Virus record (IMG/VR): IMGVR_UViG_3300044723_005436
Coordinates: 1-62,378 of that record
Strand: one strand, 5' to 3'
From: a virus
Taxonomy: Duplodnaviria > Caudoviricetes
DNA: 62,378 nucleotides
Position numbers and translations under genes: made by a program
In this document: positions 972-14,036 of the stretch, one piece after another
Layout: every line of letters starts with the position of its first letter
Position numbering within the stretch: position 1 is the stretch's first letter
Notes under the pieces: model-generated
Databases searched by the model: none
What the model was told of the DNA's origin: nothing
Seen by the model: only the letters and a program-made list of their open reading frames with translations

Positions 972-1186
972 CATTAAGCAATTCCGAGATTGAGGGGCTA
1001 CTAAAGGATTATGATAACAACGTTCGTACAATAAAACAGAACGTTGCTCGCATTGCTTGGTATATGAGAGGTGGAGCAACCATGAGTGAATTATACGCCA
1101 TGGCACAAAGTGACTTTGTTTACTTTAACGAAGTTATTGAAGACAATTTCGAACTCAGTAAGAAAGCTAAACAGATAATACTTTAG
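950..1186 (+). CDS. gp51-like hub assembly extension in the -1 frame, without its own upstream start; probable frameshift product
   Basis: Open frame 950-1186 (FFRIRLLALSNSEIEGLLKDYDNNVRTIKQNVARIAWYMRGGATMSELYAM...KQIIL*) begins at slippery heptamer T TTT TTC (950-956); not in the ORF track. Confidence 0.6.
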   Translation, partial: FFRIRLLALSNSEIEGLLKDYDNNVRTIKQNVARIAWYMRGGATMSELYAMAQSDFVYFNEVIEDNFELSKKAKQIIL

Positions 1187-1206
1187 GAATGAGCTAAAGC
1201 TCATTC
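1187..1206. terminator. Perfect hairpin GAATGAGC-TAAA-GCTCATTC between convergent transcription units
   Basis: 8-bp stem immediately after the stop at 1186; T-rich tract follows at about 1232-1245. Confidence 0.45.
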
Positions 1207-1595
1207 GTTCATTTCACTTCGTTTCATTCACTTTTTTTCTTTATTAGAACATATAATTTAATGAGCGAAGCGAAGTGCTATCATCTCGAAGTTGAACTCA
1301 TACTTCACCCGTTGCCGGGTGAAGCCATGAAAAAATACGCCATCATCTGCGTGTCTCGCTCATCTGTTATAAGAAGATTGCATTGCTGCACGGAGGCGGA
1401 AACCCGTTTACCCCCTACTTCAGCCTTCACTGATAGTTTCGGAACCTTCGATGTACCATAACAGCAATACATGTCCAGTCGCGGTTGCTTTTTCTCAGAG
1501 CCGCTATCTTTTGTGCCTAAAGTTGGTTTTACTTGTGTCAACGACGGTTTAATGCGCAGACCGTAAACGCTAAATTATTTCTATTGTGACACTAT
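1187..1595 (-). ncRNA. Candidate large structured ncRNA, family unassigned
   Basis: At least 7 stems; two GCAA (GNRA) tetraloop hairpins on the minus strand (1303-1324, 1379-1390); G-U pairs that only form on the minus strand (1451-1472); 7-bp loop/distal complementarity 1458-1464 with 1364-1370. Confidence 0.6.
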
Positions 1596-2021
1596 CTAGC
1601 CATTTAATTGTTTGTTGTTGAGAATACCTTTTTGATGTACTCTCACTCTAATGTGCCCGTTGTACCATTCGTCAGATTCTAATACTTTGTGTGTGAATTG
1701 TTCTCTCGCTTCAACGTAACTTAGTTCACTTTTGCTTGCGCAATAGAACAGTATTTCACGTTTGAAACTTTGTGGGCCTAGTTCAGCAACGTCTGCTGAT
1801 AGTTCGTCGGATGAGCCATAATATTCGCGCCAGTCTGATTCTACTTTGGTGCGCCGTTTGTTTTTTCTGCCTTTGAGGGGTGGTTTAGTTTTTTTGAATT
1901 GTGCCAGTTTTTTGCCAATGTATTTTCGATTGTTAGTCAAGTTTGTAATCAAATACACAAAGCCCACGGTACCTTCTGGTAGTTCTTCAACAATTTCGTC
2001 ATTATAATACCAAGGTTCCAT
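1596..2021 (-). CDS. GIY-YIG family endonuclease, single domain
   Basis: 'GFVYLITNLTNNRKYIGKK' GIY-YIG hairpin, 'YYGSS', conserved Glu (YVEARE) and 'WYN'; long Lys/Arg-rich insertion. Confidence 0.75.
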   Translation of the reverse strand: MEPWYYNDEIVEELPEGTVGFVYLITNLTNNRKYIGKKLAQFKKTKPPLKGRKNKRRTKVESDWREYYGSSDELSADVAELGPQSFKREILFYCASKSELSYVEAREQFTHKVLESDEWYNGHIRVRVHQKGILNNKQLNG

Positions 2022-2042
2022 GTGCTTTGTATATATGCAGAA

Positions 2043-2216
2043 TTACATGCTGTTCTTCTTTTCCTGAATCTCAGCGCGGCGTGCTTTAGTAAGTTTGCCT
2101 AGTTCGCCCAGTGCTTTACGAGCGCGAGTTGCTGCGGCTTTTACGCCTTTAGTTTCGAATGCTTCGTGTTCTTTTAGGTATGCTTCGTATTGTTCTACAA
2201 TTTGTTCGTGTGACAT
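2043..2216 (-). CDS. Small basic histone H1-like (Hc1-type) protein, 57 aa, not in ORF track
   Basis: MSHEQIVEQYEAYLKEHEAFETKGVKAAATRARKALGELGKLTKARRAEIQEKKNSM*; TAAGGAG RBS; 'KGVKAAATRARKAL' matches the Hc1-like signature as I recall it. Confidence 0.75.
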   Translation of the reverse strand: MSHEQIVEQYEAYLKEHEAFETKGVKAAATRARKALGELGKLTKARRAEIQEKKNSM

Positions 2217-2238: not shown

Positions 2239-2267
2239 ATTATATTTTATATTTTTTTAAGTGTCAA
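2239..2267 (-). promoter_or_regulatory. Consensus sigma70 promoter TTGACA-17-TATAAT
   Basis: Minus strand TTGACA (2267-2262), 17-nt spacer, TATAAT (2244-2239), upstream of the Hc1-like RBS. Confidence 0.85.
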
Positions 2268-11045: not shown

Positions 11046-14036
11046 ATGGCTGTTAACAGACAAAATCCATTTCAAAAACAATATGTAGACGGTTTTCAAG
11101 GTAAGAACATTGACGGAGACGAACTACAGTCGCTGGATACTAACAGTTACTTTGATATTGTTAGTCAGTATAATATTGCAGAAGATGGCACACTTACTAG
11201 CAAAGTAGGCAGCGGCGTTTATGTTCCAAACAATCCTGCACCAGAAGATCGTAGTTTAGTTGAACAGCCACCTGCAAATCCTATTACTATTCCTGAAGCA
11301 ACACCAGTTACTGATGCTGCAAAAATAGATTGGAGCGATGTTGCTGTTGATGATGGTTTAAATGACTATGCTGAAAACTATGCAGACGTAGAGCCGGCGG
11401 GACAAACAAGTTATCCTTATAAAAAAACTAGCCCAGATGCACCAGAAGAAATTCCTGGCATGGAAGGTGATGACGACTTTGGCAGCACAACATCAGCAGG
11501 ATTTACAAGCGATGATGATAGTGAAACAGGTGCACCTGAAGGATTAAACAAAGATCCTAAAAGTGTTACTCAAGTTAACAATGCTAAAGATGCAGCAGGT
11601 ATTGACGGTGCTAAACCTACATTTGATGCAGACTTATCTAAAATAGAAATAAATCCTAGACCTAATGAACTTAACAAGTTTAGCAGTGTGACATATAATA
11701 TTGCACTGTATATGATTAATAGCAAGAGTTATGTGAATCTAATGTCTGCACCAAGTACACCAGAAGCAGTTATACAGGACAGTGTTTTATTAATGCGCAG
11801 TGGCGGAGTAGGCAGAGACAATCAAGATAATGAACTTGCTGCTAGTCTAGGAATTGATAATAGTTTTTTCATTGATGATCTGGAAGTAACAACCATCAGC
11901 GCAGGCCCTAGTAAATACAAGCAAAACACAAACGCAACAGATGTTCGCTTTACAATTACAGAACCGCGCGGCGTAACACTTTTAGAAAAATTACAAACTG
12001 CGGCTAAAATAACATTGGCTAGTACTAAAGAGCAATACATTCATGCTCCTTATCTATTAGAAATTAAGTTCAAAGGCTACGATGAACTAGGACAACCAAT
12101 GGTGGCTCCTAGTAAGCCCAAGTATATACCTATCAAAATTAATGATATAAGTTTTGAAGTTACTGCAATGGGCACTGTGTATTCAGTAACTGCAATGCCA
12201 TTTGCACATAAACTTTTTGGACAAATTAACAGTACAATACCTATGAACATAGAACTTACAGCAGGCACAATTGGTAATATATTCAGTGATGCTATTCAAA
12301 ACTTTACAACAGAAACCGTAGAAACTCGTGTACAGGCAGGGCCGCCAAATACTCCTCCAGAAACAATTAAAACTGAAAAATTAAAGTACGGAGACAGTTA
12401 TAAAACACTTGCTGATGCGCTAACAGATTATCAAAAGAAACGTACAAAAGAAACTGTTAAAGTCAGTAAGAAAAAAGAAGGTCCTCCGGGACGGGGCGGT
12501 GGATTTACTGAAGAAAAGATACCTGCTGCAGCAAAAGGCTATGATAGTTATAGTTTTACACTGGCAACTGAGATTGCAAATGCAAAACTAAATGTAGATG
12601 CTATCTTTGATGCGCTGGATAGCCCAACACCAACTGGTCAGAAAAAAGATGATGGCAAAGCCAACATAAGTCAGTTTCAAGCATATGCACAAGGCTTTAC
12701 AGGCAGTGTTAGTGTAGACAAAGACAAAAAAACATTTAAAATTAATGCTGGTACTGATATTACCAAATTGTTGAATCTTGTTATTATGCACAGCGACTAC
12801 ATGGATAAAAACGTAATTGAAAATCCAGAGCAAGCCGCTGCCAGCGGCGAGCCTATTAAATGGTTCAGAGTAAAGCCTATTATAAAAAGTGCTGAAGGTG
12901 ATGGAAAAGGATATGACGACAAAGATGGAAGATACAAATATCATATTGAATATGTTGTAGAACCAAGTGTGATTTATTACCATGATTTTCCCTGGGCTAA
13001 AAAAAGCAAACCTACAGGCAATGGTGTGCATAAAGTTTATGATTATATTTTTAGTGGAAAAAATACTGAAGTCCTAACCTTTGATCTAAAGTTTAGAAGT
13101 GCATTTATGCAAACCATGACTGCTGGCACTGGCAGTCCTTTTGCTAACAAAAATGCAGACAATCCTTTTATACCACAAGTTAAAGAACAACCACAGAGTA
13201 CTGAAGGTAACACTACCAATGGTGCCGATAGTTTAACTCGTGCTAGAGGCAAAGATTTGTTTAGCACAATTATGAGTGATGGTGTTGACATGGTAGAACT
13301 AAGTTTGGGTATTATAGGTGATCCAGCATACTTTACTACCAGTGATTTTTATTGGCAGGATCGTGTAAGACAAGGCAGGCAGTATACAGAAGCGTTTATG
13401 CCAGATGGGACAATAAACTATGAACTTAGTCAACCATATGTGCAAGTAAATTTAAAAACACCGGTAGACTATGATGATATAAGTGGACTTGCAAATCCTA
13501 ATACAGCGACCAATAGTAGTTTTAGCGGGGTATACAAAGTTACAGAAGTTGTTCATAATTTTAGTGGGGGACTATATCAACAGTCACTTAAAGGCATAAG
13601 AGCACCTTTGCAACCAGACGAAGTAGGTGTTGCTCGTAGTAAAGAAGATAATAAAAGCAAAGAACGTGCAGCTCTGGAAAAAGATGAAGAAAAAGCAAAC
13701 TCGCCTACTGGAACGTCTAGCAATCCGGACACAGAGTCTACAGGGATAACTAATCAGAAAGCAACAGTGGTCAACAGTGCAGCAAGTGAAGATGCATATG
13801 GCGAAACACCGCCGTATACTAGTGCAACAGTAAACAATGCACGAACTGCAGAGATTGCAAGAGGTCCTGATCAGTCTGTACAAACTATACCAGATGTAAA
13901 TGCAGATTTAAGCAGTAGTTGGACTCCTCCTACTGATGCATTACAAAATGCACCACCAGCATTTACACCAACACCAACACCAGTTAGAGTTACAACAGCA
14001 GACTCACTAGTTAATCAAGATGTAGAGACAATATAA
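11046..14036 (+). CDS. Baseplate hub protein (gp27-like) with long low-complexity termini
   Basis: 'IIGDP' and 'SGVYKVTEVVHNFSGGLYQQSL' hub-type C-terminal motifs; lies between gp53-like and gp5-like genes. Confidence 0.6.
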   Translation: MAVNRQNPFQKQYVDGFQGKNIDGDELQSLDTNSYFDIVSQYNIAEDGTLTSKVGSGVYVPNNPAPEDRSLVEQPPANPITIPEATPVTDAAKIDWSDVAVDDGLNDYAENYADVEPAGQTSYPYKKTSPDAPEEIPGMEGDDDFGSTTSAGFTSDDDSETGAPEGLNKDPKSVTQVNNAKDAAGIDGAKPTFDADLSKIEINPRPNELNKFSSVTYNIALYMINSKSYVNLMSAPSTPEAVIQDSVLLMRSGGVGRDNQDNELAASLGIDNSFFIDDLEVTTISAGPSKYKQNTNATDVRFTITEPRGVTLLEKLQTAAKITLASTKEQYIHAPYLLEIKFKGYDELGQPMVAPSKPKYIPIKINDISFEVTAMGTVYSVTAMPFAHKLFGQINSTIPMNIELTAGTIGNIFSDAIQNFTTETVETRVQAGPPNTPPETIKTEKLKYGDSYKTLADALTDYQKKRTKETVKVSKKKEGPPGRGGGFTEEKIPAAAKGYDSYSFTLATEIANAKLNVDAIFDALDSPTPTGQKKDDGKANISQFQAYAQGFTGSVSVDKDKKTFKINAGTDITKLLNLVIMHSDYMDKNVIENPEQAAASGEPIKWFRVKPIIKSAEGDGKGYDDKDGRYKYHIEYVVEPSVIYYHDFPWAKKSKPTGNGVHKVYDYIFSGKNTEVLTFDLKFRSAFMQTMTAGTGSPFANKNADNPFIPQVKEQPQSTEGNTTNGADSLTRARGKDLFSTIMSDGVDMVELSLGIIGDPAYFTTSDFYWQDRVRQGRQYTEAFMPDGTINYELSQPYVQVNLKTPVDYDDISGLANPNTATNSSFSGVYKVTEVVHNFSGGLYQQSLKGIRAPLQPDEVGVARSKEDNKSKERAALEKDEEKANSPTGTSSNPDTESTGITNQKATVVNSAASEDAYGETPPYTSATVNNARTAEIARGPDQSVQTIPDVNADLSSSWTPPTDALQNAPPAFTPTPTPVRVTTADSLVNQDVETI

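Follow-up and report, generated by a model that had tools for sequence, protein, structure and literature searches.

A pseudoknotted RNA gene beside a nuclease slot in uncultured T4-like phages

Comparative analysis indicates that the minus strand of positions 1187–1595 in IMG/VR record IMGVR_UViG_3300044723_005436, a 62,378-nucleotide (nt) fragment of an uncultured T4-like phage that was analysed whole and is called the window here, encodes a structured non-coding RNA of ~410 nt (its ends are approximate) that folds into at least ten helices and two pseudoknots. The RNA belongs to a family with four sequence types (A to D), of which it represents type A. We consider it probable, if only just, that it is a self-standing, trans-acting RNA gene, made early and carried in a recombining nuclease cassette.

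A preliminary description of the window had singled out this region as the largest gap in a tightly packed genome, directly downstream of a GIY-YIG nuclease gene, and had read it as a folded functional RNA on the minus strand. Both points of position are borne out. The longest stretch without an open reading frame (ORF) of at least 80 amino acids is 1107–1595 (489 nt, against 247 nt for the next interior stretch), no credible gene lies between 1186 and 1596, and the RNA abuts the 3′ end of the nuclease ORF (1596–2021, minus strand; PF19835). Fourteen loci of hub-protein relatives align across the gap, which is better conserved than the adjoining genes. A motif search found 16 stretches with the type A motif in viral contigs, and 15 full-length type A homologues formed the alignment (A1) on which the stems were judged. 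RNAalifold predicted 86 pairs on A1, 14 with compensatory change. Our curated model has 76 pairs in 14 helices and is 97.7% paired across the 15 homologues. The stem covariation that the preliminary description proposed to look for in homologues is present: 15 pairs have changed on both sides, none of 500 shuffles matched the observed pairing or covariation, and partners slid by 1 to 3 columns were 35–41% paired.

The strand assignment holds as well. The pair cells of the 15 homologues contain 150 G-U against 9 A-C pairs, which identifies the minus strand as that of the RNA: 97.7% of cells are standard pairs there, compared with 85.3% on the plus strand. Coding-type conservation, also proposed as a check, was looked for in the 78-amino-acid ORF 1305–1541 (minus strand). 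This frame is open in the window, L022 and L024, and is broken by stops or frameshifts in the other 12 of the 15 homologues. Its variable columns are spread over codon positions 1, 2 and 3 as 33, 33 and 29, with no third-position excess, and neither it nor the other small ORFs of the RNA stretch has a Pfam or PHROG match. We give next to no credence to the idea that this or another small ORF is a protein-coding gene; the covariation, the G-U/A-C imbalance and the unconserved embedded ORF support a folded functional RNA.

All of the hairpins first drawn for this RNA reappear in A1, several within larger helices (all on the minus strand). H1 is a three-tier 5′ hairpin (1592–1587/1540–1535, 1570–1568/1543–1541 and 1564–1560/1548–1544) in which, as proposed, GUGUCA/UGACAC encloses ACGGU/ACCGU; these two tiers have four of six and two of five pairs changed on both sides, and the middle tier none of three. 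An unpaired conserved linker, AAGUAAAACCAACUUUAGGCACAAAAGAUAG (1505–1534), follows. Its A1 columns 70–97 are nearly invariant, and the part AGGC..AAAAGA is retained in types C and D too. H2 (1481–1504; 1504–1501/1484–1481) is the GCGG/CCGC hairpin of the preliminary description, with an A-rich loop. Two of its four pairs covary, C-G becoming A-U in five of the 15 homologues and G-C becoming A-U in one. H3 (1443–1480) combines an outer stem (1480–1477/1446–1443) with an inner stem (1472–1466/1457–1451) and an 8-nt loop (1465–1458); the inner stem, first described as a hairpin at 1451–1472, is 100% paired, with three of seven pairs changed on both sides, and in type C ten of ten pairs covary.

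Further towards the 3′ end, H5 is a 4-base-pair hairpin with a GNRA loop, UGCA-GCAA-UGCA (1379–1390), likewise recognised at the outset. Two of its pairs show compensatory changes, as in the A1 variants UGUA-GUAA-UACA and UACA-GAAA-UGUA, and L020 has a 39-nt extension here. H6, a small hairpin GCG-AGACA-CGC (1349–1359), is 95% paired in A1 with one-sided changes only; in other sequences it takes the form AGU/ACU or GAGA/UCUC. The GCAA-capped hairpin already noted in the preliminary description extends to 14 base pairs (H7; 1297–1331). It is 98.6% paired, shows G-U/A-U exchanges, aligns with hairpins of types B and C and is common to all family types. An 8-base-pair stem proposed to close around it (1363–1356/1268–1261) fared less well: it is 88% paired with one covarying pair, is equalled in 43 of 500 shuffles and clashes with H6 (1359–1349). 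The 3′ tail (1207–1276) comprises, by the family alignment, a variable loop, an A-rich run and a penultimate GA-rich hairpin, whose core pair covaries across the family (G-C in 37 and A-U in 14 of 51 representatives); the structure of this part is tentative for type A. The terminal hairpin, GAAUGAGC-UUUA-GCUCAUUC (1187–1206), was correctly placed from the start. Two of its eight pairs covary, with A-U replaced by G-C in seven of the 15 homologues. It abuts the stop codon of a convergent plus-strand frame and is terminator-like, in a consensus scan, on the plus strand only.

Both pseudoknots are conserved. In pseudoknot A (1364–1464), the H3 loop CUGUUAU (1464–1458) pairs with AUAACAG (1370–1364). 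This interaction, suggested in the preliminary description from complementarity, is invariant in all 15 type A sequences, and in 21 type C relatives all seven pairs change on both sides with 99.3% of cells paired. Pseudoknot B (1392–1440) is of the H-type: S1, GAAACU (1440–1435) with GGUUUC (1404–1399), crosses S2, GGGGG (1415–1411) with CCUCC (1396–1392). Both are 100% paired in A1, and in type C three of four pairs covary in S1 and two of four in S2. The pairing proposed earlier at 1392–1415 thus stands, not as a simple stem but as one half of this pseudoknot. Across the 21 type C relatives 22 of 25 pairs covary, both pseudoknots included.

H7 is flanked by 12-nt direct repeats, copy 2 (GCAGAUGAUGGC, 1339–1350) on its 5′ side and copy 3 (CGAGAUGAUAGC, 1277–1288) on its 3′ side. 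Each copy changes along with the other in every family type, examples being CUCAGAUAAUGU/UCUAGAUAAUAU, CUCGGAU/UCUGGAU, CUCACAUGAAG/UCUACAUGAAAC and ACUCACCACAGGG/AUCUACCACAGGG. A mutual-information scan of the 51 representatives was dominated by the split between types and was useful for the direct-repeat columns only. No complementary strand for 1350–1339 or 1288–1277 was found inside the RNA. The two copies resemble a pair of sites for a single external partner.

A family hidden Markov model (HMM) recovered 154 loci, with at least 103 distinct sequences of at least 250 nt. All known so far come from contigs of uncultured T4-like phages sampled in marine, estuarine and fresh waters. The runs in which the window's block occurs are metagenomes with the labels estuary, marine, fresh-water and salt-marsh (20 rows, 19 studies). 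Type B is a different-looking RNA that follows the nuclease gene in more distant hub relatives. The RNAs of types B and C share the 3′-terminal hairpin GAUGAACGU(N)AGUUCAUC, of which the window's type A RNA ends in a close variant; a pattern search for the shared hairpin returned 120 stretches, type C among them. In an alignment of the 51 representatives, types A, B and C share H7 and its flanks. A type-C-only HMM matches the window at 1489–1206 (minus strand, E=2.7e-12), its sole match in the 62 kb, and finds 19 of 20 type B sequences. A B-only HMM and a type A HMM each fail to reach the other type's sequences directly, so the link between A and B runs through type C. Type D was found by a covariance model of the type C core (R1) in three of five records of the GIY-YIG clade that had seemed to lack the RNA, and the type-C-only HMM confirms it (E=6e-10, 2e-8 and 9e-5). 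R1 has no match in the window, in the whole genome of Methylophilales phage Melnitz or in G002. Blastn of window 1000–2100 and of a type B RNA gave no match in 50,697 GenBank phage records. A circular permutation between types A and B, considered because of GGUUCCG motifs, was dropped, as the family alignment puts the motifs in different helices.

A scan of prokaryote genome contigs with a 17-nt type C motif gave matches of which 118 of the 120 listed are chance occurrences in unrelated genomes. L335 and L347 are the only true family members among the matches listed in prokaryote assemblies; these 1.5–1.7-kb contigs were binned into Flavobacteriales and Bacteroidetes metagenome-assembled genomes (Bacteroidota). 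Both probably derive from phages, and what they say about hosts is a faint hint at best. The last one or two hairpins of the family (model positions ~440–498) also stand alone in related contigs (L124, L138, L172, L184, L190, L196, L198 and L225), where they may serve this group of phages as a general-purpose terminator or stability element.

The recurrent gene order around the RNA is gp46, Hc1-like gene, nuclease slot, RNA, and the Hc1-like gene follows gp46 in several relatives. In types A to C the slot holds a GIY-YIG gene on the same strand as the RNA, which begins at, or a few bases from, the nuclease stop codon. In L132, L141 and L168 it holds a PD-(D/E)XK nuclease (PF24608), and in L354 and L355 an inverted GIY-YIG gene whose 5′ end lies next to the start of the RNA. 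The type D RNA is retained with the nuclease gene on the opposite strand or 2.7 kb away; G001, of this type, has an inverted GIY-YIG gene plus four more ORFs between nuclease and RNA. The GIY-YIG gene ends upstream on the same strand in 79 of the 120 hairpin-pattern loci, with the hairpin mostly 326–490 nt and in a few ~700–900 nt after the stop codon. Among 25 distinct loci with both hairpin and motif, 22 have a GIY-YIG gene; of the other three, two are too short and one has a PD-(D/E)XK gene. Outside these 25 there are two more loci with PD-(D/E)XK and two with inverted GIY-YIG genes. A nuclease gene thus stands beside the RNA in every locus with enough flank, and the two kinds are both bare catalytic domains of 141–184 amino acids. 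Because the slot nuclease can be swapped, inverted or separated while the RNA is kept, the RNA is not an appendage of one mRNA. It is a gene of its own: not an untranslated region of the nuclease, not an intron and not coding.

Viral contigs encode at least 597 relatives of the window's GIY-YIG protein. A quick tree built from 122 GIY-YIG proteins accounts for direct linkage to the RNA on the same strand with just three changes, so nuclease and RNA appear to be mostly inherited together. The closest cultured homologue, at 63% identity, belongs to phage Melnitz (L232, MZ577097.1 30449–30889), where its gene directly follows nrdA and nrdB. We take this to be the position that denA (endonuclease II) occupies in T4, and by that analogy the Melnitz gene's place suggests a role in host-DNA breakdown rather than homing. 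Directly after the RNA, the PD-(D/E)XK and type D loci carry an ORF of 243–256 amino acids (L168 1990–2721, L141 1868–, L355 1828–2598, L353 1811–) with a weak match to ATE_C (arginine-tRNA-protein transferase; E=6.6e-4, below cut-off). The window has no homologue of this gene, so its product is not a general partner of the RNA.

The cassette has a history of its own. Compared with L003, L004 and L005, third-codon-position identity is 0.43–0.48 in the hub gene, 0.75–0.89 in the GIY-YIG gene and 0.69–0.85 in the Hc1-like gene, and nucleotide identity is 0.81–0.94 in the RNA and 0.61–0.65 in the gp51-like frame beyond it. Similarity to relatives starts at the Hc1 ribosome-binding site and stops at the terminal hairpin; beyond 2234 even the closest relative, L001, is unrelated. 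The block 1187–2234 (Hc1-like gene, GIY-YIG gene and RNA) is thus far less diverged than the neighbouring hub gene and its other flank, which points to exchange between otherwise diverged phages, and we infer that it was passed on by recombination. SegB offers a precedent, being a GIY-YIG homing enzyme whose genes co-localise with phage transfer RNA (tRNA) genes and amplify them, according to the available part of PMC13096335.

Six RNA-library runs contain 35–47% of the sampled words. Within 800–2400, the RNA-library contigs leave 800–907 and 2258–2400 uncovered; the same regions vary between relatives, so nothing is concluded from the lack of cover. One contig, in one run only, ends at 1186.

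At the head of the operon, a candidate sigma-70-type promoter, TTGACA-17-TATAAT (2239–2267, minus strand), matches the consensus at 12 of 12 positions, the consensus match being what identifies it; at its place L001, L003 and L005 carry the end of another ORF. The first gene encodes an Hc1-like small basic protein of 57 amino acids (2043–2216, minus strand; PF07432, E=4.1e-12), with homologues upstream of the nuclease slot in L168, L141 and L355. A spacer of 21 nt separates it from the GIY-YIG gene, whose 141-amino-acid product consists of the catalytic domain only. This protein matches PF19835 (SegE_GIY-YIG, E=2.9e-37) over residues 4–124 and phrog_447 (148 positions) end to end. Its best NCBIfam match is TIGR01453, 'group I intron endonuclease', with E=3e-4 over the catalytic part only and below that model's cut-off, and phmmer against PDB sequences gave chance matches only.

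On the plus strand, a baseplate-hub ORF (63–971; PF12322 and phrog_150) precedes a conserved frame that has no start codon, converges on the RNA and ends at 1186. This frame (938–1186; ...RIRLLALSNSEIEGLL...AWYMRGG...; first ATG at 1064) had been called gp51 in the preliminary description. The hub ORF stops at 969–971, and a slippery T_TTT_TTC (950–956) may join it to the frame by a –1 frameshift. The stretch GCAAATTTTTTCGCATTCGCCTCTTAG is nearly invariant in all eight aligned loci; both frames diverge elsewhere.

How the RNA acts has to be argued from this setting. On the reading we prefer, transcription would start at the promoter (2267–2239) and run through the Hc1-like gene, the GIY-YIG gene and the RNA to the hairpin at 1206–1187, the RNA being the last part of an early operon in this phage. 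The promoter match supports this operon, as do RNA-library contigs that bridge the junction between ORF and RNA in three of four runs. A Seg-type nuclease beside an RNA gene would promote the spread of the block by recombination, as SegB does for tRNA genes. Our best guess is that the RNA would be a compact folded particle, protein-bound or self-associated, acting in early host takeover, with the twin 12-nt repeats around H7 as sites for one partner. Several observations weigh against this account. The trans-acting particle is a default and not a finding, as no test points to a partner or an activity. The RNA-library contigs are assembled, may hold DNA and carry no strand information. No sigma-70-type promoter was found before the type D RNA in L355. 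Nuclease and RNA seem mostly co-inherited and not sporadic, unlike a typical selfish homing gene. The single-sequence fold energy is unimpressive on the minus strand (z –1.82; 4 of 100 shuffles do equally well), and the plus strand scores better (z –3.46); it is the comparison, not this energy, that decides for structure.

Next in rank comes a cis-acting 3′ element, whose fold would stabilise, process or tune the Hc1/nuclease mRNA. The start of the RNA at or near the nuclease stop codon in types A to C and the contiguous RNA-library contigs fit such an element, as does the rating of the related Polynucleobacter-1 motif as probably cis-regulatory in the available part of PMC2864571. We nevertheless regard it as unlikely: type D keeps the RNA with the nuclease on the opposite strand or 2.7 kb off, the nuclease can be replaced by an unrelated fold, and a fold of ~410 nt that contains two pseudoknots and long invariant unpaired stretches goes far beyond the needs of a 3′ stabiliser. 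Somewhat less likely still is a ribozyme, either self-cleaving at the junction of ORF and RNA or a degenerate relative of the group I introns that house GIY-YIG genes. The pseudoknotted fold with invariant unpaired stretches would suit it, and so would the sub-cut-off 'group I intron endonuclease' match of the abutting ORF, whereas no Rfam ribozyme or intron model matches at E≤10 on the window or at E≤1 to 10 on relatives. The 21 nt between the Hc1-like and GIY-YIG genes are too few to hold a 5′ intron half, the convergent gene that meets the end of the RNA leaves no downstream exon, and no junction sequence is common to the family types.

We assign only a slim chance to the RNA being a partner of the neighbouring nuclease, bound for targeting, inhibition or self/non-self control. 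The bare catalytic domains and the constant presence of a nuclease gene beside the RNA speak for such a partnership. Against it, a single RNA family would need to work with two unrelated folds, the Melnitz genome has the 63%-identical enzyme beside nrdB and no RNA found by R1, neither end of the RNA has a hypervariable guide-like segment, and four ORFs separate the two genes in G001. An equally long shot is the stronger form of the idea, a two-part nuclease with the RNA as second subunit, which would recruit, restrain or aim GIY-YIG or PD-(D/E)XK enzymes; the twin 12-nt sites would then be contacts with protein or target. A purely DNA-level element, such as a homing target, recombination hot spot or origin with incidental RNA structure, would explain why the block is much less diverged than its flanks and sits at the edge of a hypervariable region. 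It is strongly disfavoured, since it would neither favour G-U over A-C 150 to 9 on one strand nor keep two pseudoknots by compensatory change. The coding reading comes last, below this DNA-level signal.

Large RNAs that combine several pseudoknots with long invariant unpaired stretches have so far mostly proved to be ribozymes, riboswitches or ribonucleoprotein cores. This family is almost undescribed, being absent from Rfam except for a 141-nt piece in one subtype, and it occupies one fixed genomic place beside a slot that always holds a small nuclease. Covariation-backed structures are now available for it. Should the RNA prove to work with the nuclease or in host takeover, phages would have a tool of a new kind, and a two-part nuclease, if real, would cut DNA in dependence on RNA without any relation to CRISPR, TnpB or IscB. 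Otherwise the family still ranks among the larger orphan RNA classes of aquatic viruses.

Among known RNAs, Rfam 15 covariance models at gathering scores gave no match anywhere in the window, GOLLD, ROOL, HEARO, RAGATH, ribozymes and riboswitches included. At E≤10 on 1000–1800 the only hits were AbsR25 (20.5 bits against a gathering score of 47), snoR99 and SNORD97, all far below gathering, and relaxed scans of type B loci gave chance-level matches. ARAGORN found no tRNA or transfer-messenger RNA (tmRNA) gene in the window or in the loci of 12 relatives, and with no Rfam tmRNA match either we ruled these out. The preliminary description had likewise not recognised a tRNA, tmRNA, RNase P or group I/II intron. 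The two-piece tmRNA described for Melnitz in the available part of PMC9004378 is a different gene, elsewhere in that genome.

The T4 td group I intron carries the GIY-YIG ORF I-TevI, and a GIY-YIG ORF followed at once by a pseudoknotted same-strand RNA in a T4-like phage recalls this arrangement. A group I intron was rejected, there being no interrupted gene, 5′ intron half or 3′ exon and no intron model at E≤10 in the window or at E≤1 to 10 in relatives; around the RNA lie complete Hc1-like and GIY-YIG ORFs upstream and the convergent frame ending at 1186 downstream. The omega/reRNAs of TnpB and IscB and HEARO are nuclease-adjacent scaffold RNAs of mobile elements. Our RNA resembles them as a structured RNA at the end of a small nuclease gene and differs in having no RuvC/HNH effector, transposon ends or variable guide and no HEARO or IS605-orfB match in Rfam. 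A type III toxin-antitoxin RNA, with tandem short repeats ahead of an endoribonuclease toxin gene, was also rejected: here the nuclease gene comes before the RNA, in the window as in types A to C, and the only repeats are two 12-nt copies with 50 nt between them. The sequence of the RNA shows no tandem array, for which no dedicated tandem-repeat search was made.

Closer parallels are found in Seg-type homing systems, with which the locus shares the GIY-YIG catalytic domain (PF19835, E=2.9e-37), the position beside a conserved RNA gene in a myovirus, the presence of other nucleases and both orientations in the slot, and the co-conversion pattern (third-position identity 0.75–0.89 in the GIY-YIG gene compared with 0.43–0.48 in the hub gene). 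It differs in that the 141-amino-acid nuclease has no C-terminal DNA-binding domain, that the nuclease is inherited with the RNA and not sporadic, and that the RNA is not a tRNA. GOLLD and ROOL are large ornate RNAs often found in phages and prophages, according to the available text of bioRxiv 10.1101/2024.12.08.627333. They share with the window's RNA its large size, elaborate fold, phage carriage and lack of a dedicated protein partner; ours is smaller (~410 nt), comes from marine T4-like phages and sits at a nuclease slot and not at tRNA genes, and it has no Rfam match to either.

The nearest described relative is Polynucleobacter-1 (RF01718), a candidate, probably cis-regulatory motif recorded for Burkholderiales and for fresh-water or estuary samples (Weinberg et al. 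2010, PMC2864571, in the part available). A literature search by this name returned nothing beyond that paper. Among 12 loci scanned, RF01718 was found in four, all type C (L117, 112.1 bits; L128, 97.6; L127, 95; L182, 65.5; gathering score 37), as the full 141-position motif. The type C contig L127 also carries a freshwater-2 RNA (RF02980) at 13067–13143 (plus strand; 62.7 bits, gathering 49.9). The motif forms the 5′ domain of the type C RNA, from the GIY-YIG stop codon into the window-homologous core, and both are known from fresh-water and estuary metagenomes. The domain is missing, even at E≤10, from the window's RNA, and also from the scanned relatives of types B and D and those linked to PD-(D/E)XK. 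The shared core (H2 to H7, both pseudoknots) lies wholly outside the Rfam model, and the available text of PMC2864571 does not present the motif as part of a phage RNA of >400 nt. The remainder of the type C transcript is homologous to the window's RNA by the type-C-only HMM (E=2.7e-12), although R1 gives no match. The novelty claimed in the preliminary description therefore stands for the window's RNA, which has no Rfam match, and is not total for the family, since type C relatives carry RF01718 as their 5′ domain. By the same link an orphan Rfam motif gains a context, as part of a phage RNA three times longer.

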